In this document: piece by piece, positions 3,003 to 60,075 of the stretch
How positions within the stretch are numbered: the stretch's first letter is position 1
Layout of the letters: every line of letters begins with the position of its first letter
Source of the DNA: an uncultured Clostridia bacterium
GTDB taxonomy: Bacteria; Bacillota; Clostridia; UMGS1883; UMGS1540
Length of the DNA stretch: 64,000 bases
Direction: 5' to 3'
Assembly: GCA_937966555.1 (NCBI GenBank)
Contig: CALCLY010000025.1
Coordinates: 57,970-121,969, forward strand
Notes under the pieces: model-generated
Databases searched by the model: none
The model's input: only the letters and a program-made list of their open reading frames with translations
What the model was told of the DNA's origin: nothing
Translations under genes and position numbers: made by a program

Positions 3003-4280
3003 TTGGTTGGTGGAGGTGTAAATGTGTGCAGGCTTAAAATAAACGGAGGCAGAAAACTATCGGGCAGTATTGCCGTACAGGGAGCTAAAAATTCCGTGTT
3101 GCCGATTCTCGCCGCAACGGTGCTGTGTGACGGTGTAAGCGTTATTCACGGCTGCCCGGCGCTTCTTGATGTGGATTCGGCGGCAGAAATATTAAAATAT
3201 ACGGGCTGCAAGGTGAAAAGAGAAGGAAATACCGTAACTGTGGACGCTTCAAACGTTTTGCCGTGCGAATTTCCTGCATCGCTTATGCATAGAATGCGCT
3301 CGTCAATCACATTTTTGGGTGCGCTTACGGCGCGCTGCAAAAGAATTAAAATGAGCTCCCCCGGAGGATGTGAGCTGGGTCCGAGACCTATCGACTTACA
3401 TATAAAAGGGCTCCGGGAGCTTAATATAAAAACCGAGGAATACGGAGGATTTATCGAAACCGCGGCAGACGATATTCTCGGAAATGATATACATCTCGAT
3501 TTTCCAAGCGTCGGCGCAACCGAAAATATTATGCTTGCTGCCGTGCTTGCAAAAGGAAAAACGACAATAAACAATGCCGCAAAAGAGCCCGAAATATGGG
3601 ATTTGCAGTGCTTTTTAAAAAAGATGGGCGCGAAAATCTCGGGTGCCGGCACGGACAGAATAGAAATTGAAGGCGTAAAAAAACTGGGCGGCGCCGAACA
3701 CACCGTAATTCCGGACAGAATTGTGGCTTCAACATATCTTTGTGCCGCGGCAATGTGCGGCGGAAAGATAGAACTCCGAAATATTGAACCGCTTCACATA
3801 AACTCTGTTTTATCCGTTTTGAAACAGACGGGAACGCCGGTAACCGTAAACGGAAAATCCGTGTTGCTTGAATCTCCTGAACGGCTTTCCTGCGTTGATA
3901 TGATACGCACCATGCCTTATCCCGGTTTTCCCACAGACGCGCAGGCGGCAGCTTCTGTCATGCTTTCCGTTGCGGACGGCACGAGCGTTATTCTGGAAAA
4001 TATATTTGAAAACAGATTTAAGCATTTGGGTGAGCTCGGCAAAATGGGAGCCGATATAAAAATGAGCGGCAAAGTTGCGGTTATACGCGGTGTAAAAGAA
4101 CTTTACGGAGCAAGTGTAAGCGCCATGGAGCTTCGCGGCGGAGCGGCGCTTGTATGTGCCGGATGCCGTGCACACGGAGAAACACAGGTGCTTGACATAG
4201 AGCATATTGAGAGAGGTTATGCCGATATTGCGGCGGATTTGTCCGCTCTCGGCGCAGATATTTGCAGAATCGGACAATAA
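3003..4280 (+). CDS. murA: UDP-N-acetylglucosamine 1-carboxyvinyltransferase MurA; true start probably GTG at 3024 (GGAGG at 3012-3016)
   Basis: LKINGGRKLSGSIAVQGAKNSVLPILAATVL N-terminus is typical of MurA, and the ~420 aa length fits. The listed ORF start is TTG; an in-frame GTG follows 21 nt later with a well-spaced RBS. Confidence 0.85.
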   Translation: MVGGGVNVCRLKINGGRKLSGSIAVQGAKNSVLPILAATVLCDGVSVIHGCPALLDVDSAAEILKYTGCKVKREGNTVTVDASNVLPCEFPASLMHRMRSSITFLGALTARCKRIKMSSPGGCELGPRPIDLHIKGLRELNIKTEEYGGFIETAADDILGNDIHLDFPSVGATENIMLAAVLAKGKTTINNAAKEPEIWDLQCFLKKMGAKISGAGTDRIEIEGVKKLGGAEHTVIPDRIVASTYLCAAAMCGGKIELRNIEPLHINSVLSVLKQTGTPVTVNGKSVLLESPERLSCVDMIRTMPYPGFPTDAQAAASVMLSVADGTSVILENIFENRFKHLGELGKMGADIKMSGKVAVIRGVKELYGASVSAMELRGGAALVCAGCRAHGETQVLDIEHIERGYADIAADLSALGADICRIGQ

Positions 4281-14725: not shown

Positions 14726-14732
14726 TTTGCTT

Positions 14733-14775
14733 TAAAGCCGTTGGTTTGTTTTAAACAAACCAACGGCTTTTTTCA
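14733..14775. terminator. Strong hairpin terminator (AAAGCCGTTGGTTTGTTT-taa-AAACAAACCAACGGCTTT + TTTCAGG) between ytfJ and the convergent sigK gene
   Basis: 18 bp perfect inverted repeat. The U-tract is on the + strand, so it mainly serves ytfJ. Confidence 0.8.
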
Positions 14776-14806
14776 GGTTCCGGAGTTTTTTAACATCCCC
14801 TTTTTG

Positions 14807-15499
14807 CTATACTTCAAAACTCTCCCTAAGCTTTTTTAAAGCCTTTTTCTCTATTCTTGACACATATGAACGTGATATACCGAGTTCCCCGGCGATTTCG
14901 CGCTGTGTTTTTGCTTCTTTGCCGAAAAGCCCGTATCTTTTCGCGATAATTTCCGCTTCTCTTTTACAGAGCACGGTTTTTACGGCATTATAAAGTTTTT
15001 TGATTTTTGTTTTAAGTTCGATTTTTTCCGTGGCATCTTCATCGTCGGTTTTCAGAATCTCCATAAGGCTCACTTCGTTTCCTTCTTTGTCAAATCCTAT
15101 CGGGTCGTTTAAAGAAACCTCGTTTTGCAGTTTCCTGTTTGAGCGCAAAACCATTAATACTTCGTTTTCGATGCAGCGCGCGGCATATGTTGCAAGCCTT
15201 ATGTTTTTCTGCGGATTATATGTAGATATAGCCTTAATCAGACCTATTGTGCCTATGGAAATCAAATCGTCGTTTTCTATTCCCGAGCCGCAGTATTTTT
15301 TAACGACGTGAGCCACAAGGCGGAGATTGCGTTCTATGAGAATATTTTTTGCCTCTTCACTGCCTTCGCCCCACATGGCGAGATATTTTTCTTCTTCTTC
15401 CTTTGAAAGCTGAGGCGGAAAAGACGTTCCTCCGCTTACAAATGATACGAGAAAAACGTTTTCGAGAAGAAATGAAATAAAACCTATTAAAATGTTCAT
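14807..15499 (-). CDS. sigK: Sporulation sigma factor SigK (pro-sigma-K, uninterrupted)
   Basis: Pro-sequence plus regions 2 and 4 closely resemble B. subtilis SigK rather than SigE: FPPQLSKEEEEKYL, NLRLVAHVVKKY, ISIGTIGLIKAI, RLATYAARCIENEVLM, DPIGFDKEGNEVSL, KTQREIAGELGISRSYVSRIEKKAL. Confidence 0.65.
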   Translation of the reverse strand: MNILIGFISFLLENVFLVSFVSGGTSFPPQLSKEEEEKYLAMWGEGSEEAKNILIERNLRLVAHVVKKYCGSGIENDDLISIGTIGLIKAISTYNPQKNIRLATYAARCIENEVLMVLRSNRKLQNEVSLNDPIGFDKEGNEVSLMEILKTDDEDATEKIELKTKIKKLYNAVKTVLCKREAEIIAKRYGLFGKEAKTQREIAGELGISRSYVSRIEKKALKKLRESFEV

Positions 15500-16273: not shown

Positions 16274-17209
16274 ATGAATACCGATATGCTGAATTTAAAT
16301 GCAAAGGTATCGGAAAACGGCAAAAATATAAACATTCCGCTTTCCGAACTTCGAAAAGACATTCCGCATCTCACCGGAGGACAGATGAGAGAGCTGATGG
16401 GGTTTTTTAATAGAATGTTTGCCTTGGTCAGACTTGTAAAACCTTCAGTATGTGCGCAGTATTTATATGAAGATGGGACGCTGGAGAAAAAAGAACTTAA
16501 ATGCTACTGTAAATGGGGCAAAGACAGACGGTGCGAAAACTGCATTTCCGCTATTGCCGAGAGAAACGGTGCGTCCGAGACAAAAATAGAGTTTTTAAAC
16601 GACAGACTTTACAGTATTTCGGCGGCGCCCATGGTTGTGGACGGTGAGAATTTTGTACTGGAGCTTGCAACCTTTGTAGATTGCGGGGACGGTATTTCGG
16701 AAACCGAAAAAAATGAAATTTGGGGCGCCATAAAAAGACACGCCGGCAGACTGTATAGGGATCCTGTAACAGGTGTTTACAACAGACATTATTTTAATGA
16801 TAAGCTGAGCGGACTTAAAGGAAATTTTTCATTTGCCATGCTTGATATAGACAATTTTAAAAACATAAACGATATATACGGGCACATGGCAGGAGATGCG
16901 GCGCTTGTCGCGGCGGCACAGACGGTGAAAGAAATTATCGGAGAAAAAGGCGCGGTTATCCGTTACGGCGGAGATGAATTCTTTCTTTTGTTTAATAATG
17001 TCAAAAAAGATGAAACGGAAGAAATATTTTCGGAAATACTGAGAGCTGTAAGAAAAATCAAGCTTAAAAATTATCCCGAAATTAATTTGACCGTAAGCAT
17101 CGGCGGAGCAAGCGGACAAGGGAAAATGTCTCAGATTCTGCAAAATGCAGATTTGGCTTTATATGAAGCCAAAAATACAAAAGACACCTATAAAATATTT
17201 GCAGGATGA
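16274..17209 (+). CDS. Diguanylate cyclase (GGDEF domain) with a Cys-rich N-terminal sensory region (CYCKWGKDRRCENC)
   Basis: GGDEF domain with an intact active site (RYGGDEF), the YNRHYF motif before it and the DIDNFKNINDIYGH motif. No TM segments. Start taken at the ATG at 16274. Confidence 0.8.
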   Translation: MNTDMLNLNAKVSENGKNINIPLSELRKDIPHLTGGQMRELMGFFNRMFALVRLVKPSVCAQYLYEDGTLEKKELKCYCKWGKDRRCENCISAIAERNGASETKIEFLNDRLYSISAAPMVVDGENFVLELATFVDCGDGISETEKNEIWGAIKRHAGRLYRDPVTGVYNRHYFNDKLSGLKGNFSFAMLDIDNFKNINDIYGHMAGDAALVAAAQTVKEIIGEKGAVIRYGGDEFFLLFNNVKKDETEEIFSEILRAVRKIKLKNYPEINLTVSIGGASGQGKMSQILQNADLALYEAKNTKDTYKIFAG

Positions 17210-20200
17210 CAGGAAGATTTGTGTGATTGGGAACATTAAAAAGAAGAAAACTAAATATAATATTTTAAGAAATGCGGTTTTGCATTCTGTTATATTCACA
17301 CTTGTAATTTTGTGCGCTTTTCTTTTTCTCAATGCTAAACTCGGAAAAGCGGTGCAGACAAGGGCATACAGACTTCTTTCAGACGCTGCGCATGTGCAGA
17401 AAGCCGCTACGAACGAGCGTGTTGAGTCGTACTTCACTCGTCTTCAAATAATGGCTTCGAGCCTTAACTGGGACTGTGATATATATACAGATTCGGATCT
17501 TTTGGCGCATCTTAAGGAACTTGCGCGGGGCAGTCAGTTTGAAAATGTCGGGATTTCGGATACAAGCGGTAAGATACTTTACCAAGACGGCACAAAGAAG
17601 GACTGCGCGGACAGAGAATATATTAAAAACGCAATTGAAGGAAACCGGAGCACGCAGTTTTTAACGCACGGCCGCATGAGCGGAGACTCGATTTTGGTCT
17701 TTGCTTTGCCGGTATATTCATACGGCGTGGTGTCGGACGTGATTGTTGCAACAAAAAAAGTAAGCGATATAAGCCGCGAACTCGGCGGTATAGAATTAAA
17801 TGACGAGCAGCATTGTTTCCTTTGTTATGAAAGCGGCACAGTTGTTGCCGCACCGCAGGACAATTCCACGGGAATAGTACTCGGGAGCAGTATACAGGAT
17901 TTCTTTATAAATGACAGTGCACCCGAAGAAATACCGATAAACGAAGTGCGTGAATACACTTATAACGGGGAAAAATATTTTGGTGTATATACTGAGTCCG
18001 GGCTTGATGATGTATATATATTCAGCGTGGCAACGGTTTCATACGCTTCCAGCCTCGCGGGTCTTTATAACAGGCTCGCAACAATGATTATTGTTGCGGC
18101 ATTTATTGTATTCTTTATTGTTGCCGTCAACGTAATAATCAGAATGGCGCGTAAAATCAAAGAAGCGGAGAGGCAGGATCTGGAAAGACGCAAAAAGCTT
18201 TCCGAGTATCATGAATTTCAAAATAAGCGTTCTTCAAGCCGGGCAAATGTTTTGGCATCATATCATATTAATATTACCGAGAACAAGTCTATCGGTGGAA
18301 AAAGCGCAATAAATGCGGGTAAATTCGAAAATCTCAAGACGGTAGATGAGTTTTATGCCGCTGTGGCTGAAGACATACATCCGCTTGATAAAATAAGATT
18401 TGATGAAATTTTTTCTGTGGACGAACTCAAAAAAGTATTTGAAAACGGAGAATCTACCGTGCAGGGCGATTTTCTGTTTTATGAAAACGGAAAGCGCTAT
18501 ATTTGGCTGAGAATTGTTGCAGATCTTGTCCGTAATCCGCTTAACGACAGCTTGGAGACGATTATTTCGGCTATAGATATAAACCGCGGCAAACGTCTTG
18601 AGCAAATAGGCGATAAGCTCATAAAAGACGGATTTGACTCTATAGGGCTTATAGATGTTAAATCCGGCTGCGTTTATGGAACCAAAAAAATGGCAGCCTC
18701 AGAGCTGTTTGGCGGTTTTGTGGTAGACAAAGGCGTTTCGTATGACAGGGCAGCAAGAATTGTACTTAAAAGGGTGCTCGCAAAGCATGATTATGATTAC
18801 ATAATTGAAAGTTTTAAGCTTTCAAATGTAATTCATGAGCTTGAAAATAAACAGTTTTATTTTCTGACAACAAGATTTTATAATCGCAGTGCGAAAAAAG
18901 ATTTGCAGTACAGAATAAGTTTTTCGTATATTGATGAAAGAAAAGAGAGCATATTGGTCTCAAACGAAGATATTTCACATGTTTTGGCAAGTAAGACCGA
19001 TATTGAAACAGGGCTTTTGAATTCTACCGGATTTCATGAAAAGGTCGAAAAATGGCTTGAGGAGAATCCGAATAAAAAGTATAGAGTTTACAGGTACATT
19101 CTTGACGGCTTTAATGATATTAACGGCGTTTACGGCTTTGAAACAGGTAACAAGATTTTGCGCGATGTCGGCGTTTTCATGCGTATGCATAATGATGAGA
19201 ACAGCTTTTCGGCGCATCTTAATGCAAATCATTTTGTGCGTTTTTGTTCCGAAGATCATAACTCCGCCGAGACGGTGCTGAAAGAATTTAACGAATATTT
19301 CTCACATTACGATATTGACTATCCGCTTTCAATTCACATAGGCGTTTATGACCTTTGCGAAGAAAATTGTGATTCTCTTGCAATGGTGTATAAAGCATAT
19401 ATTGCTCTGCAGTCATTGGAAACAAGCGCTTCAAAGCGCATTGCATATTATGCTCCGGGGCTTTTAAGCAATGTGCAGAGCCGCAGGGAGCTTCTCGGCG
19501 AACTTAAAAGCGCAATTTCCGGCGGACAGTTTGAAATATGGTTCCAGCCGCAAATAGATTATAAAACAAAATCCATAGTCGGAGCAGAGGCACTGGTGCG
19601 CTGGAGACACCCCGAAAGAGGTTTTATACCGCCTTCGGAGTTTATTCCGCTGCTTGAGCGCAGCAGGCAGATAACGGTGCTTGACAGATACGTTTGGGAG
19701 CAGTGCTGCCGCTATGTACGGCATTTGATGGATATGGGAGTTACTTTGCCGGTATCCGTAAATGTTTCGCGCGTAGATATTGAGGATATAAAAGTTTGCG
19801 ATATTATTCTGGAATATGTAAAAAAATATAAAATATCTCCCGAGCTTATTAAGCTTGAAATTACAGAAAGCGCGTATATGAGCAGAAGAGATGAGCTGAA
19901 AAACGTTGTTACGCAGTTTAAAAAAGCAGGCTTTACGGTTGAAATGGACGATTTCGGAGAGGGCTATTCTTCACTTAATATTCTGAAAGACAGTGATGTT
20001 GACGTATTAAAACTCGATATGAATTTAACCGCCGGAATAGAAGACGCAAAGACGGTGGAAATTCTGAAAAGCGTTGTTAATATGGCGCATAATCTTAATG
20101 TTTTTGTTATTGCCGAGGGTGTGGAAAGCAAAGCGCAGGCAGATACTCTGGCAAGTCTGAAATGCCGATATATGCAGGGATACTTTTTCGGAAAGCCTAT

Positions 20201-20258
20201 GCCGGCTGCGGAATTTGAAAAGCTTTTAAAGGAAAGGGATATAAAGTCGATTCAATAA
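17145..20258 (+). CDS. Membrane-anchored c-di-GMP phosphodiesterase: periplasmic Cache-like sensor, TM, degenerate GGDEF domain, C-terminal EAL domain
   Basis: EAL motifs: QPQID...GAEALVRW, ELIKLEITESAY, the DDFGEGYSSL loop and EGVE. The middle GGDEF-like region lacks GG(D/E)EF. Two TM helices flank a ~250 aa extracytoplasmic domain. The start (17145, 17163 or 17223) is ambiguous and overlaps the upstream gene. Confidence 0.8.
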   Translation: MQIWLYMKPKIQKTPIKYLQDDRKICVIGNIKKKKTKYNILRNAVLHSVIFTLVILCAFLFLNAKLGKAVQTRAYRLLSDAAHVQKAATNERVESYFTRLQIMASSLNWDCDIYTDSDLLAHLKELARGSQFENVGISDTSGKILYQDGTKKDCADREYIKNAIEGNRSTQFLTHGRMSGDSILVFALPVYSYGVVSDVIVATKKVSDISRELGGIELNDEQHCFLCYESGTVVAAPQDNSTGIVLGSSIQDFFINDSAPEEIPINEVREYTYNGEKYFGVYTESGLDDVYIFSVATVSYASSLAGLYNRLATMIIVAAFIVFFIVAVNVIIRMARKIKEAERQDLERRKKLSEYHEFQNKRSSSRANVLASYHINITENKSIGGKSAINAGKFENLKTVDEFYAAVAEDIHPLDKIRFDEIFSVDELKKVFENGESTVQGDFLFYENGKRYIWLRIVADLVRNPLNDSLETIISAIDINRGKRLEQIGDKLIKDGFDSIGLIDVKSGCVYGTKKMAASELFGGFVVDKGVSYDRAARIVLKRVLAKHDYDYIIESFKLSNVIHELENKQFYFLTTRFYNRSAKKDLQYRISFSYIDERKESILVSNEDISHVLASKTDIETGLLNSTGFHEKVEKWLEENPNKKYRVYRYILDGFNDINGVYGFETGNKILRDVGVFMRMHNDENSFSAHLNANHFVRFCSEDHNSAETVLKEFNEYFSHYDIDYPLSIHIGVYDLCEENCDSLAMVYKAYIALQSLETSASKRIAYYAPGLLSNVQSRRELLGELKSAISGGQFEIWFQPQIDYKTKSIVGAEALVRWRHPERGFIPPSEFIPLLERSRQITVLDRYVWEQCCRYVRHLMDMGVTLPVSVNVSRVDIEDIKVCDIILEYVKKYKISPELIKLEITESAYMSRRDELKNVVTQFKKAGFTVEMDDFGEGYSSLNILKDSDVDVLKLDMNLTAGIEDAKTVEILKSVVNMAHNLNVFVIAEGVESKAQADTLASLKCRYMQGYFFGKPMPAAEFEKLLKERDIKSIQ

Positions 20259-20513
20259 AAGTAAAAGGGGATGTTAAAAAGCTCCGGAACGCAAGAAAAG
20301 GGGAAAATCAAATATCACGGAATATGCAAATGATGCAGTTAGATTTAATTAGAGGCAGAAAAATCAAAAAAATGATTTTTCAAAAAATATACCTTTTCTT
20401 GCTATCAGCAAACTTCACCTCTCGACGTACCTATGTACGCCTTCGGGTAACCCAAAACAAAAGTTTTGGCTCAGTTTGCCGATTCCAAAGCTTTTTTCCT
20501 ATCCCCTTGAAAA

Positions 20514-20545
20514 AATGGGCTTTTTAAAAAGCCCCGATTTTATAA
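20514..20545 (-). terminator. Terminator for the RpiR gene (GGGCTTTTTAAAAAGCCC palindrome followed by ATTTTTTC on the minus strand)
   Basis: Palindrome read directly, with a U-tract on the minus strand. Confidence 0.6.
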
Positions 20546-50253: not shown

Positions 50254-50283
50254 TTGACTTTGTGTTGAGTTTTATTGTATAAT
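50254..50283 (+). promoter_or_regulatory. Sigma-A type promoter for lyase 2 (TTGACT - 18 - TATAAT)
   Basis: Hexamers read directly, ~25 nt upstream of the RBS GGAGG. Confidence 0.5.
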
Positions 50284-50307
50284 TCAGAAAAAAGGTTGGA
50301 GGTAATT

Positions 50308-53300
50308 ATGAAAAAATTAACAGCAATACTTGTATCTCTTGTTATAAGTGCATCATTGTTACCCGCAAGGGCGGAAACAACCCCCGGGCACAAGCTCGAG
50401 ATGTTCATGGGAAACGCAGCCGCTTTTTACATCGGACAGCCGAAGATGTACACGGGCGGTGAAGTAAAATACGTTGACAGCGAAAACATAGCCGTATTGC
50501 CTTACATAAAGGACGGAAGAACGCTTGTTCCGCTTCGTGCGGCTGGCGAGTCAATCGGCGCAGAGATTTCGTACAACGAAATTGAAAGATCGGTAACCGC
50601 TGTTTACAACGGGGAAACGGCTGTTTTCCCGATAGGTCAAAATGAGTTTACGCTCGGCGGAAAAGAAATTCCCCTCGACGTTGCTCCCGAAATACGCGAA
50701 TCGAGAACCTTTGTTCCGATAAGAGCAATAAGCGAGGGCTTCGGGAAAAAGGTTTCCTACGATAAATGCGGTCTTGTGGTCATAGCCGACAGAGAAAATT
50801 TCTTTGATCTCGAAAAGGACCTCGATTTGTTCAGGGAGCTTACGGGCAAGCTTTGCTTTCATGCGCCCTCGGGCATCGAAGCGGTAAACAAAATAAAAGA
50901 AAACTTCCCCGATAACAAGCATCCGCGCCTTTATGCCGACGATGATAAAATCGAAGTTTTGCGCCGGAGGGTAAAAACCGACGCAAGCGTTTCAAAATGG
51001 TTTAAGGGTATAAGAGATTATGCGGATACTTATATAGGTACGGACCCCGTGGTTTATGATATTTACGACGGCATCAGGCTTTTAAATATTTCCCGTAAGG
51101 CAAGAAGCATAATGCAGGAGCTTGCATTTTGCTATCAGATGACGGGCGAAACAAAGTATGCCGACAGATGCATTAAGGAAATGAACGCCGTTTGCGAGTT
51201 TCCCGACTGGAATCCGTCTCACTTTCTCGATACGGCGGAAATGACGGAAGGACTTGCCTTTGCGTACGATTGGCTGTATAACTATATTACTCCCGATTTC
51301 CGCGAAAAGGTTAAAACGGCAATAATTGAAATGGGCTTAAAACAGGGAGTTCAGGATTACAGAAATAAGCCCGAGGACAGAAAAAGAACATACAGATGGG
51401 CGCAAAGCAGTGTTGCGGACAACTGGAACATTGTCTGCAATTCGGGACTTATTCAGGGTGCAATGGCAGTTTGCGAGGACGCGCCGGAGCTTGCGGCGGA
51501 GATTTTTGAAAGCGGAATGAAGCTTTTGGAGAAAGCTGTTTTGATGTACGGTCCCGACGGCGCATGGTATGAAGGCCCCGGCTATTGGCAGTATGCGACA
51601 GAGTATTTTATCGACCTTTGCAGCTGTCTGGATTCGGTTTTTTCCGATACGTTCGGATACTTGAGTGCGCCGGGTGTTTCGCAAACGGGCTACTACATAA
51701 CGGCAATAACAGGTCCTTGCGGAAACTTTAATTTCCATGATTCCGAAATACCTGCCGTAAACGCACCCGAGCTTTTCTTCCTTGCGGATAAGCTTTCCGA
51801 CAGCGCGCTTTCGGCGCTTCGCACGGAGCAGATGAAAAACAGAAACACAAAAGGCTCGATAAGAGACATTTTATATTATAATCCCGAGCTTTCCGGCGAC
51901 TCGGCTTTGATGAAAAAGGACTATTATTTCCGTGACACGGAGGTTGCTGCATTAAGAAGCGACTGGAACGATTACAATGCGGTATTCCTGGGCGTTCACG
52001 CAGGCAAAACAGACGTTTATCACGGACACATGGACGCGGGCAGTTTTGTTCTTGACGGCTTCGGCACGCGCTATGCCTGCGATTTGGGCGCGGATGACTA
52101 CAATATAGATGACAGCGTCTGGAATCTTTACAGATACAGAGCCGAGGGTCATAACACTCTCGTTATAAATCCTTCGAAGGACGGAGGACAGAAAATAGAA
52201 GGCTCAGCGAAGATTGACAGATTTGAGTATGACGACAACGACAGCTTGGCGGTTATGGATTTGACGGATATGTACGACGCTAAAAGCGTAAAGCGCGGCT
52301 TTAAGCTTATCGATAACCGCAGCGCCGTAATAATTCAGGACGAGATAAAGACGGATACGCCCTCGGATATCTGGTGGTTTATGCACTCGGAACAAGGCAT
52401 TGAAGTGTCGGAGGATAAAAAGAGCGCAACAATAAAGGGAGAATACAGAAATCTTAAAATTTCGCTCCTTCAAGACACGCCCGGAGAATTTTCGGTTATG
52501 GAGGCGGCCCCGATGGAGACATCGCCGCAAAATGATTCTCAGAACAAAAATTTAAAGTACAGAAAGCTTGCGTTTTGCGCGAAAAACGTAACGGATTTAA
52601 CTATTCCCATGCTCTTACGGTTTGAGCTGCCAATCGAAGGCGCGGAAGAGGGGATAAAGCCCGGTGTTACAAAGCTTGACAGCTGGACTCTTGATAACGC
52701 CGAGACGCCGAAAAAGCCGAAGCTTACAAGCATTCTGGCAGACGGCAGGGAAATCGAAGGTTTTGAGAGCGACAGATTTGTTTACGCATACAGAGGCCCT
52801 TCGGAAAATGAAAAAGCGCCCGAAATCACGGCACGCGGACAGGGTGAGATAAGCGTCGTGACAACCGGCAGCGTGCCGGGATACGCCGTGGTTTCGGTGA
52901 CCGAAAACGGAGAAACACAGCATTATGTTATAAAAATAGAACGCGAAATTTTAAAGAAGGCGCCGTCAGACGTTTTGAATTTTGAAATCAAGGGCGTTGA
53001 GGCAAGCGATGTTCCGCAGCCCGAAAACAACGCGGAAAATACCATTGACGAAAACCTTGCAACGCGTTGGTCTGCATACGGAAACGCGCATATAGTCTAT
53101 GATCTGGGCGAGGTTAAGACAATCAAATACGTAGGTCTTGCCGTTTATCAGGACAAATCAAATGACGGAAGAAGACAGTATTTTGATATATCGGTTTCGG
53201 AGGACGGAGAAAATTACAGGCATATCTTCACGGGCGAAACCACGGGAACAACGCTTGAAGAAGAAATTTTCCCGATAGGAGAGGCGAAGGGAAGATATGT

Positions 53301-53373
53301 AAAAATATATTGTAAGGGTTCAAGCATGGGAAACTGGAATTCCATCACCGAATGCAATATCTACGGGAAATAA
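50308..53373 (+). CDS. Secreted polysaccharide lyase 2: signal peptide, Cu-amine-oxidase-N-like domain, heparinase II/III-family domain, C-terminal discoidin domain
   Basis: Paralog of lyase 1 at ~75-80% nt identity in the catalytic region, sharing motifs such as YHGHMDAGSFVLDGFGTRYACDLG and NWNIVCNSGLIQGAMAV. Signal peptide MKKLTAILVSLVISASLLPARA. Start at the ATG at 50308. Confidence 0.75.
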   Translation: MKKLTAILVSLVISASLLPARAETTPGHKLEMFMGNAAAFYIGQPKMYTGGEVKYVDSENIAVLPYIKDGRTLVPLRAAGESIGAEISYNEIERSVTAVYNGETAVFPIGQNEFTLGGKEIPLDVAPEIRESRTFVPIRAISEGFGKKVSYDKCGLVVIADRENFFDLEKDLDLFRELTGKLCFHAPSGIEAVNKIKENFPDNKHPRLYADDDKIEVLRRRVKTDASVSKWFKGIRDYADTYIGTDPVVYDIYDGIRLLNISRKARSIMQELAFCYQMTGETKYADRCIKEMNAVCEFPDWNPSHFLDTAEMTEGLAFAYDWLYNYITPDFREKVKTAIIEMGLKQGVQDYRNKPEDRKRTYRWAQSSVADNWNIVCNSGLIQGAMAVCEDAPELAAEIFESGMKLLEKAVLMYGPDGAWYEGPGYWQYATEYFIDLCSCLDSVFSDTFGYLSAPGVSQTGYYITAITGPCGNFNFHDSEIPAVNAPELFFLADKLSDSALSALRTEQMKNRNTKGSIRDILYYNPELSGDSALMKKDYYFRDTEVAALRSDWNDYNAVFLGVHAGKTDVYHGHMDAGSFVLDGFGTRYACDLGADDYNIDDSVWNLYRYRAEGHNTLVINPSKDGGQKIEGSAKIDRFEYDDNDSLAVMDLTDMYDAKSVKRGFKLIDNRSAVIIQDEIKTDTPSDIWWFMHSEQGIEVSEDKKSATIKGEYRNLKISLLQDTPGEFSVMEAAPMETSPQNDSQNKNLKYRKLAFCAKNVTDLTIPMLLRFELPIEGAEEGIKPGVTKLDSWTLDNAETPKKPKLTSILADGREIEGFESDRFVYAYRGPSENEKAPEITARGQGEISVVTTGSVPGYAVVSVTENGETQHYVIKIEREILKKAPSDVLNFEIKGVEASDVPQPENNAENTIDENLATRWSAYGNAHIVYDLGEVKTIKYVGLAVYQDKSNDGRRQYFDISVSEDGENYRHIFTGETTGTTLEEEIFPIGEAKGRYVKIYCKGSSMGNWNSITECNIYGK

Positions 53374-53583
53374 AAAATATTTTTTATCCTGTTCCGCTGA
53401 CATAACAGGATGTTAAAAACTCCGGAAGACAGCGGAAAAATACATTTCTTGAGGCTTAACGTGATTTTTCGCGTTAAGCCTCAAGCTGTGTAAACAATTC
53501 ATTTTATACGCCTTATCGGTTCGTGATAAGAGATTTTTAATTATTTTTTGTGCCGGCGATTTTACGGCAAAATGGAGATTAAT

Positions 53584-59745: not shown

Positions 59746-60075
59746 AAAAACAAAGCTGTTTAAAAAGCCACAACCCGATAAGGAAGTATTGGTTTTGAAA
59801 GCCGTTCTTTAAGTTTATACTTCGTAAACAGGCGGTCGTATACGTCAGTATTACGACCGCCTGTTTTCTTGTCTAAAGCTTAAACTCCGACCTTCAAAAC
59901 TGCTCTGCACCCTGTAAACAATATTTTTTGATGAAGTTCAAGGCAAAAAAGCGAGTAATCCTGTCGGATTTCGAGCCTTTTTTAACGCTGAAATTCGCAA
60001 AAAAGATGTTTAGCAGGGCAATACTTCCTTGCCGGGCTGTGGCTAAAGTCAGTTGACTTTTTAAACAGCTTTTTT
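59746..60075. mobile_element. MITE-like non-coding element bounded by ~50 bp imperfect terminal inverted repeats
   Basis: Left arm AAAGCTGTTTAAAAAGCCACAACCCGATAAGGAAGTATTG (59752-59792). The right arm reverse-complements to AAAGCTGTTTAAAAAG[14 nt insert]CCACAGCCCGGCAAGGAAGTATTG (60020-60072). No ORF between the arms. Confidence 0.45.
59826..59870 (+). terminator. Terminator after hydA (AAACAGGCGGTCGTA ... TACGACCGCCTGTTT + TCTTG), lying inside the MITE-like element
   Basis: 15 bp inverted repeat with a T-rich tail. Confidence 0.6.

Follow-up and report, generated by a model that had tools for sequence, protein, structure and literature searches.

The closest described counterparts of the repeat reported here are the BOX and RUP elements of pneumococcus, which are non-coding, measure 100–300 nt and are tightly folded through the pairing of their terminal inverted repeats (Croucher et al. 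2011, PMC3049150). Optional internal units make BOX modular, and it often abuts or supplies a stop codon; BOX and RUP are enriched downstream of coding sequences, in an orientation mirroring the coding strand, and are co-transcribed with their neighbours, and ISSpn2 has been proposed as the cognate insertion sequence (IS) of BOX (PMC3049150). The same work covers SPRITE, a dispersed pneumococcal repeat near the 3′ ends of genes that may serve as a terminator, and the ERIC and Correia elements, transcribed repeats resembling MITEs (transposable elements of the miniature inverted-repeat type), with terminal inverted repeats, whose folded RNA can alter mRNA processing or stability, the effect of ERIC being dependent on orientation (PMC3049150). 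REP sequences are palindromes of 20–40 nt with GTAG or CGTC heads that are served by RAYT, and REP, BIME and REPIN sequences are extragenic, lie downstream of genes, form mosaics and are targeted by other mobile elements (Di Nocera et al. 2013, PMC3733652). The present analysis concerns a 64,000-nt stretch of DNA from an uncultured Clostridia bacterium (assembly GCA_937966555.1, contig CALCLY010000025.1, positions 57,970 to 121,969), hereafter the window, and a dispersed repeat found in it, to which the name E1 is given here.

An initial annotation had drawn attention to a sequence of about 28 nt recurring behind three genes of the window and had treated it as a unit complete in itself. The 28-mer proves instead to belong to the terminal inverted repeat of a 241-nt repeat that is complete in one of the three copies, copy B. 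With a probability of roughly 0.8, it is the left terminal inverted repeat, together with flanking A's, of a non-coding, non-autonomous, MITE-like element. Copy B is the intact, fixed element, and copies A and C are decayed left-end relics, leftovers after internal deletion or replacement, so that the annotation of this DNA becomes one intact repeat (20267-20507) and two relics instead of three regulatory sites.

Copy B occupies positions 20267..20507 of the plus strand, from GGGGATG to CCTATCCCCT, as established by a full profile match, the fold and the alignment. Its 28-mer (20263-20290) starts 5 nt past the stop codon of a dCache/GGDEF/EAL open reading frame (ORF; 17145-20258), and conserved sequence runs on for 217 nt beyond it, which was missed at first reading; the whole E1 profile is matched (positions 1-243, E = 8e-68, nhmmer). 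Copy A, a solo left end at 14777..14804 on the minus strand, reads AAAAGGGGATGTTAAAAAACTCCGGAAC from 14804 to 14777 and comprises the 24-nt left repeat (14800-14777) plus an A-run; its end had been placed one base too far, at 14805, the positions of the other copies being as first reported. It begins 3 nt past the TAG stop of a sigma-factor (sigK-like) ORF (14807-15499) with matches to Sigma70_r2 and Sigma70_r4, agrees with the copy B 28-mer at 27 of 28 positions (A versus G at the remaining one), as had been noted, and matches the profile over positions 1-34 only (E = 4e-5). Copy C, a degenerate remnant of the left end at 53408..53447 on the plus strand, retains a 20-nt core, GGATGTTAAAAACTCCGGAA (53408-53427), in which the A-run is one base shorter through a one-base deletion, followed by some 20 nt of weak similarity. 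Its core starts 35 nt past the stop of a heparinase-like ORF (50275-53373), and only profile positions 3-48 are matched (E = 0.026). All three copies are thus co-oriented with the gene upstream and close to its stop codon, just as first described. A search of the window with the 22-copy profile found these three places only, and the gapped pattern GATGTTAAAAN{1,3}CTCCGGAA likewise occurs at exactly three sites, with none in 100 dinucleotide shuffles.

The same pattern was used to scan one genome per species, which yielded at least 107 loci, at least 73 of them carrying E1. A further 34 metagenome loci and a set of strain loci were also sampled, only part of each genome being covered; individual loci are cited below by L numbers.

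Anatomy and fold of E1

Copy B was aligned with 21 copies from other genomes, and the profile was built from these 22 copies; the flanks of about 74 copies are alignable far beyond the 28-mer. The consensus runs GGGGATGTTAAAAAACTCCGGAAC, GCAAGAAAAG, a variable arm, CTTTTCTTGC, TATCAACAAACTTCGCC, CTCGGCGTACCTATGTACGCCGTCGGG, TAA, CCCAAAGCTAAAGCTTTGG, CTCAGTTTGTTA and ATTCCAAAGCTTTTTTCCTATCCCCT, with the end words GGGGATGTTAAAAAAC... at the left and ...TTTTTTCCTATCCCC at the right. Distances from left to right end cluster at about 155 nt, where the variable arm is missing, and at about 242 nt. Copies span 120–490 nt with a mode of 242 nt, the short forms measuring about 120–155 nt and the long forms, of 260–490 nt, holding nested modules.

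In copy B the left terminal inverted repeat, GGGGATGTTAAAAAGCTCCGGAAC (20267..20290, plus strand), forms the 5′ strand of a closing helix, P1, and is the core of the 28-mer, which adds to it the four flanking A's at 20263-20266. The right terminal inverted repeat, ATTCCAAAGCTTTTTTCCTATCCCCT (20482..20507, plus strand), supplies the 3′ strand; across the 22 copies the left terminus is invariant or nearly so and pairs with a right end that is itself nearly invariant. Read from the sequence, the right end in reverse complement, AGGGGATAGGAAAAAAGCTTTGGAAT, agrees with the left one at some 18–19 of 24 positions, the same figure as for the family's left end GGGGATGTTAAAAAACTCCGGAAC against its reverse-complemented right end GGGGATAGGAAAAAAGCTTTGGAAT, and the alignment of GGGGAT-GTT-AAAAAAC-TCCGGAA with GGGGAT-AGG-AAAAAAGC-TTTGGAA makes plain that the inverted copy is imperfect. 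The palindrome TCCGGA, singled out in the initial annotation, has no special role here: in the fold its GGAA side pairs with right-end UUCC, and its CC faces an AA mismatch.

Two further helices stand within P1 on the plus strand, making a three-way junction. P2 (20291..20402) pairs GCAAGAAAAGG at 20291-20301 with CCTTTTCTTGC at 20392-20402 and encloses the variable arm, whose hairpin GAAAAATCA...TGATTTTTC lies at 20358-20381; P3 (20406..20481) pairs 20406-20414 with 20473-20481 and encloses hairpin A (CGACGTAC...GTACGCC, 20421-20447) and hairpin B (CCCAAAAC...GTTTTGG, 20451-20469). In the consensus, P2 is formed by GCAAGAAAAG with CTTTTCTTGC and P3 by CAACAAACT with AGTTTGTT. The single strand of copy B folds at -73.4 kcal/mol (z = -6.0).

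The covariance analysis proposed along with the initial annotation brought out a strong and conserved fold. Across the 22 copies 97.5% of alignment cells are paired, as against only 36–55% in controls with slid partners, and 14 pairs change on both sides compared with 4.2 in shuffles, none of 500 shuffles reaching 14. Five of the compensated pairs lie in P2, three in the arm hairpin and three in hairpin A, and in hairpin B a G-C pair is replaced by A-U in seven sequences. These changes are confined to the inner helices; P1 has none in the alignment, though in a copy outside it (L090) the left and right ends read GGAGATG and ATCTCC, respectively. Conservation of sequence in P1 without covariation is the pattern expected of transposon ends that are bound by a protein.

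E1 has no coding capacity. The sole reading frame from its internal ATG is unconserved and broken by insertions and deletions in the variable arm; the small ORF opening at the ATG of GGGGATG was considered and set aside, being unconserved and, in copy A, just seven codons in length. Promoter prediction gave none within E1 or next to it.

Several variant structures were seen among the sampled copies. In L019, L083, L044, L030, L035, L092, L095, L090 and L054 the loop of hairpin A (CGGCGTAC...GTACGCCG) holds a nested optional module, CGAAACAAGCG...GGGAGCCCT, some 100 nt long and at the same position in several genomes; a group II intron was entertained for the hairpin A insertions and found no support in Rfam. 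At L151 (about 1530-1745) the right part of E1 is the mirror image of the left, giving a perfect long palindrome, AACAAACTTCGCCGCTCGGCGTAC CTAT GTACGCCGAGCGGCGAAGTTTGTT. L104 (4397-4420) has a variant left end, GGGCTGTTAAAAAGCTCCGCAAC, whose first bases fit the stem of the hairpin accompanying E1 (described below) and not the usual GGGGATG.

Placement behind genes and variation between strains

The orientation and stop-codon proximity first remarked on in the window hold across the lineage. A long co-oriented ORF ends no more than 45 nt upstream of 61 of about 82 copies, and the left neighbour is co-oriented for 36 of 40 full-length copies; in 30 of 41 copies the left end is no more than 30 nt away from a co-oriented stop codon, and none of the 41 has the mirror arrangement, with an opposite-strand stop beside the right end. 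The same strict ORF criterion, applied to a smaller independent sample chosen by the right end, gave 9 of 18. The spacer between stop and E1 is short and A-rich but otherwise variable, and in over 70 copies the left end starts at one and the same base regardless of the flank. On the other side, a stem of at least 10 bp follows within about 18 nt of the right end in 28 of 38 copies (1 of 38 at the left), and the mean fold energy of the 60-nt flanks is -19.1 kcal/mol at the right versus -7.6 at the left. Right neighbours are evenly divided between the strands (18 versus 18), and the polarity therefore follows the upstream gene with its terminator and not the direction of replication.

The genes in question are unrelated housekeeping and metabolic ones. 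They include those for a solute-binding protein, an acyl-CoA synthetase, a GH42 enzyme, DnaK, a cation-efflux protein, a penicillin-binding protein, ScpA and malic enzyme, and no orthologue of the window's own host genes carries E1 in the sampled loci. At L081 the element stands inside an operon, past the stop codon of scpA and ahead of the ribosome-binding site of scpB, two genes that overlap in the window.

In the window, the terminator hairpin GGGCTTTTTAAAAAGCCC (20517..20534), identified on both strands by a terminator scan, lies 9 nt past the right end of copy B and is common to the convergent EAL and RpiR-like genes. Directly after the copy A stub, between the sigK-like gene and ytfJ, the sequence reads as a terminator hairpin GCCGTTGGTTTG...CAAACCAACGGC (14737..14767). 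Elsewhere E1 is followed in most genomes by a conserved hairpin, GGCTGTTTAAAAAGTCAATTGACTTTTTAAACAGCC (L001-L106, e.g. L015, L035 and L021), with a loop that differs from genome to genome and compensatory changes in the outer stem. It also occurs without E1 (L006 at about 5000, L030 at about 528 and 3027, L061 at about 3594 and L084 at about 2861), and in L165 and L166 it has taken the place of a resident terminator still kept at the same site in L164 and L161. A second terminator core, GCAAAATG-N6-CATTTTGC, recurs behind unrelated genes in L138, L148 (the cation-efflux site), L039, L161 and L192, which suggests another family of related terminator hairpins.

Placement and fold together raise the possibility that E1 is mainly a selected cis-acting RNA module of the 3′ untranslated region (UTR), which might stabilise the transcript, offer a site for processing or act as a switch coupled to the termination of translation, and of which the 28-mer would be the 5′ strand of the closing helix, starting within ribosome reach of the stop codon. 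The strictly sense orientation directly behind stop codons, the strong fold with its covarying helices, conservation across species above that of the flanking DNA, and the lack of an internal or upstream promoter, which would leave E1 readable only within the upstream mRNA, all speak for such a role. So does an excess of G.U over A.C pairs, 72 versus 18 when counted by cells; counted by positions, however, the excess is gone (17 versus 15), and the data do not tell which strand matters. The module reading is nevertheless quite unlikely, for the host genes are unrelated and placements orthologous to those of the window are not shared, strains with identical genes do without E1, copies decay, lose either end and take nested insertions, and the sequence is homogeneous within a genome and differs between genomes. 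Conservation of the terminal helix without covariation also fits recognition by a protein better than RNA pairing. Of what had first been proposed for the 28-mer, a small dispersed repeat is supported, and so is a structured location in 3′ UTRs, whereas the 28-mer as a self-contained element is not.

Strains whose flanking genes are identical or nearly so differ in the presence of E1. Within the window's own species copy B is present in all 10 strains examined, and the intergenic length at the copy C site is constant in 10 strains. The sigK 3′ region (L108-L117, about 3690-4130, orthologous to window 14730-14810) occurs as three alleles behind an identical SigK protein. In eight strains the 28-nt stub is present and the terminator GCCGTTGGTTTG...CAAACCAACGGC comes after it, whereas L115 and L111 retain about 95 nt of E1 and have a different terminator hairpin, within which L111 has an additional insertion of about 350 nt; the breakpoint coincides exactly with the inner border of the 24-nt left end. 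This variability, with the 95 nt surviving in two strains, marks copy A as a relic. Left-only, right-only and internally deleted copies with both ends kept all occur in the family, and the solo left ends of the window are accordingly ordinary relics, not specially retained sequences.

The tidiest case is a response-regulator site in an E1-rich species (CAKSFM), where the protein is identical in the empty L161-163 and the filled L164. The empty alleles read TAA cag AAAAAAGAG GGGGGACTGTAGCAAAATG...CATTTTGCTACAGCCCCC; the filled one reads TAA tag AAAAAAGAG, then E1 (GGGGATG...CCTATCCCCT), then TG AAAAAGAG GGGGGACTGTAGC..., a net gain of 250 nt. E1 has here entered, as a simple insertion, the A-tract at the resident terminator's 5′ foot, and AAAAAGAG flanks it left and right. 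At the upp site of the same species eight strains are empty and two bear different, rearranged E1 alleles, with an identical Upp protein throughout; the left junctions of these alleles differ, as do their filler bases. At a cation-efflux site the filled and empty genes differ at 3 of 1164 nt, two of the three being in the last 4 nt, and 136 nt including the resident terminator are replaced by 282 nt containing E1. A BioY site is filled in the metagenome-assembled genome; the three strain loci inspected in sequence, L170, L171 and L175, have it empty, and all ten strain loci listed share one short intergenic spacing.

E1 is also a site of rearrangement. L141/L160 and L140/L164 share an identical upstream gene and E1 and differ in the genes downstream (a GH3 enzyme and RNase Y), which indicates recombination between E1 copies, and short assembly contigs break within the element.

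Other repeats were observed in and around E1. A terminator-like hairpin of the window, AAAGCTGTTTAAAAAG...CTTTTTAAACAGCTTT (59752-60072), is interrupted by another non-coding repeat, some 260 nt long, with inverted ends of its own, CCGATAAGGAAGTATTG (59775-59791) and CAATACTTCCTTGCCGG (60019-60035); this second repeat is found as well inside the sigK terminator of L111 and fused to E1 in L157. E1 is interrupted by a further repeat (...GCATTGGGCGCATGTGTTCG...) in L082 (2200-3300) and also in L035, L041, L092 and L106. The insert of about 700 nt in L082, a lead that was dropped, contains no long ORF and is a pile of repeat fragments including a tandem duplication; a group II intron was suspected here, and Rfam found none.

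Candidate routes of spread

If E1 is a MITE-like element, a trans-acting transposase would bind and cleave both termini, the left binding site lying within the 28-mer, and an enzyme of the DDE type would fit a short target duplication and ends of the form GGnnnTG. Insertion would favour an A-rich stretch just upstream of terminator stems. Such a preference would leave the left end facing the stop codon and the right end facing the terminator, and after insertion E1 would be co-transcribed within the 3′ UTR of the upstream gene. Some insertion sequences, such as IS30 and IS911, insert beside sequences resembling their own ends. The polarity of E1 might, speculatively, have a similar source in the feet of terminator stems in this lineage (GGGG[A/C]TGT...AAAA), which resemble its own end.

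Shared words of at least 7 nt, beyond plain A-runs, flank 6 of 54 copies where 1.8 are expected, only 2 of 1000 permutations reaching 6. Locus-specific duplications unlike the usual spacer of the genome were found in L018 (TTTCAAAAA), L103 (AAAACAC) and L095 (AAAAAGCA).

A number of observations nonetheless weigh against a mobile element of this type. The target duplication in L164, the sole exact pair, is of ambiguous length (7–11 bp), the target being an A-run; the spacer after the right end (TTGAAAAAGNG) is alike among the copies of one genome, and the apparent duplication could partly be sequence carried by the element. A plain comparison of the flanks of all older copies gives a mean longest shared word of 5.26 versus 4.93, indistinguishable from the A-rich background. 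At the upp and cation-efflux sites E1 did not simply insert, the resident terminator region being replaced and the junctions untidy, and classical DDE insertion alone does not explain a polarity of 30 to 0. Finally, no transposase or autonomous element with E1 ends was found among the at least 73 genome loci, the 34 metagenome loci and the strain loci.

The search for a mobilising enzyme took several forms. No pair of E1 ends encloses an ORF in any locus examined, these covering only part of each genome, and a metagenome scan for left ends lacking the following G, meant to enrich for an autonomous element, returned no matches. The gene lying between two inverted left ends in L104 was looked at as a transposase candidate and is presumably an ordinary conserved clostridial protein. 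A dif/Xer-like site and the -35 box of an extracytoplasmic function (ECF) sigma factor were also considered for the 28-mer; both are incompatible with the copy number or the conserved bases.

The untidy sites invite an account that needs no transposase, in which E1 would spread by template switching or short-homology recombination at terminators through an A-tract and a G-rich stem foot (AAAAAG..GGGG) found on either side of E1 and of ordinary terminators alike. Two of the polymorphic sites are block replacements beginning at or in the stop codon, two of the three differences in the cation-efflux gene lie in its last 4 nt, and the left junctions at upp differ, with different filler bases. The empty and filled cation-efflux alleles both read T(G/A)AAA(A)GGGG at the junction, and hybrid forms exist in the L104 left end GGGCTGTTAAAAAGCTCCGCAAC, the chimeras with the second repeat in L157 and the mirrored copy in L151; the lack of a transposase in the sampled loci also speaks for this account. 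It is nonetheless unlikely: the left end starts at the same base in over 70 copies, the L161/L164 pair is a tidy insertion, the duplications in L018, L103 and L095 are specific to their loci, and a homology of 6–10 nt is very short for dozens of independent events.

Single-strand mobilisation by a Y1 HUH enzyme, E1 being a non-autonomous derivative of IS200/IS605 or a REPIN-type pair served by RAYT, should also be weighed, given the polar placement, the plentiful hairpins, the accompanying hairpin family resembling REP sequences and the older copies without an obvious duplication. This is highly improbable. The ends of E1 are mutually pairing inverted repeats, not two similar subterminal hairpins; no conserved target of 4–5 nt precedes the left end, where the flank is variable, and the clean pair has a duplication. 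The even split of right-neighbour strands speaks against a bias for one replication strand, and the hairpins have neither the GTAG nor the CGTC head by which REP is defined (PMC3733652). A tblastn search with an approximate IS200 TnpA query, a weak test, found nothing in the sampled DNA, nor did a RAYT gene turn up in the sampled loci.

The MITE-like reading can be extended to the hairpin that follows E1. The two may form a terminator-targeting system that homes in a fixed polarity to the A-tract and G-rich stem foot of intrinsic terminators, possibly since the stem foot imitates the end of the element, and overwrites the resident terminator stepwise. The extension is doubtful; were it true, a good part of the 3′ UTRs and terminators of this lineage would be supplied and made uniform by a family of mobile repeats, and only then would E1 represent a new class of mechanism.

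Distribution and comparison with described repeats

The genome-wide pattern search proposed with the initial annotation shows that placement is non-random and polar to stop codons, with the qualification that about 30 of the listed matches are isolated chance occurrences inside genes of unrelated phyla. The remaining listed matches come from uncultured Clostridia of human (Hadza and other) and ruminant guts. E1 is present in at least 15 species-level assemblies, among them CAKSDE, CAKSJU, CAKSFM, CAKSFY, CAJKHT, JAZOOC, JAZPZI, JAGBHP and SVKF, three of the assemblies having at least 16–20 loci each among the matches listed. Between the window and those loci the only alignable DNA is E1 itself (69–87% identity) and three short unrelated stretches, and the element is hence better conserved across species than the genes around it. 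The variable arm is alike within one genome and unlike between genomes, a distribution that fits recent amplification or homogenisation in each lineage.

Searches of reference collections identified no known relative. Rfam 15 gave no matches at the gathering score in the window, a check likewise proposed at the outset, nor in four E1-bearing loci; ranked by E-value, the best match in the element region (0.22) attains about 10% of the gathering score of its family, which is chance level. E1 has no blastn match in phage and plasmid records, its left end has none in the IMG/VR viral contigs, and a literature search did not find the exact E1 sequences, keyword searches giving general comparators only. 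Membership of a known IS or REP family, raised in the initial annotation as the finding that would undo its proposal, is borne out in spirit, E1 being a MITE-like family, although that family is itself undescribed in the sources searched.

The practical consequences are several. E1 breaks short-read assemblies of these uncultured gut Clostridia and mediates rearrangements between strains, and its filled and empty sites could be used as strain markers in metagenomes. The strict position between stop and terminator, combined with terminator turnover, also makes of it a natural experiment on how mobile repeats remodel bacterial 3′ UTRs.

Set against the described systems, E1 displays the characters of a MITE: it is small and non-coding, has terminal inverted repeats and many dispersed copies, and is polymorphic for presence or absence at four sites. 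It lacks the mark of a gene-specific cis-regulatory element, the host genes in the sampled loci being neither functionally related nor orthologous to those of the window. Ends of the DDE insertion sequences of the IS1/IS1595 families read GGnnnTG and their duplications measure 8–9 bp. MITEs derived from these are a lead only: the ends of E1 are GGGGATG at the left and GGGGATA at the right (reverse complement), and the element is small, has no ORF and shows, in the clean pair, a duplication of about 8–9 bp, ambiguous within 7–11 bp. IS200/IS605 derivatives have subterminal hairpins in place of terminal inverted repeats, a fixed target of 4–5 nt 5′ of the left end and no duplication; E1 has inverted-repeat ends, a variable left flank and, in the clean pair, a duplication.

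The nesting of elements in the neighbourhood of E1 is similar to that of REP, BIME and REPIN. E1 differs from REP in its length of about 240 nt, its inverted-repeat ends and the target duplication in the clean pair, and in place of GTAG or CGTC heads its ends and the accompanying hairpins start with GGGGATG, GGGCTG or GGCTG. ERIC and Correia belong to Proteobacteria and are unrelated in sequence. The conserved hairpin behind E1 in most genomes behaves much as SPRITE does; SPRITE, however, is a single long stem with a U-rich tract, whereas E1 is a three-way junction upstream of a terminator, without a terminator tail of its own.

BOX and RUP remain the nearest analogues, sharing with E1 the size class, the paired inverted ends, the placement and orientation downstream of genes and, in the case of BOX, modularity. 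They have no sequence similarity to E1 and reside in another host lineage, and no cognate insertion sequence was found for E1. No description of E1 was found, and it shares no sequence with BOX, RUP, SPRITE, ERIC, Correia, REP or REPIN; it is a new family of MITE-like repeats, alike in kind to BOX, RUP, SPRITE, ERIC and the Correia elements, with a polarity (30 to 0) and a position between stop codon and terminator that are stricter than the enrichments reported for BOX and RUP (PMC3049150).

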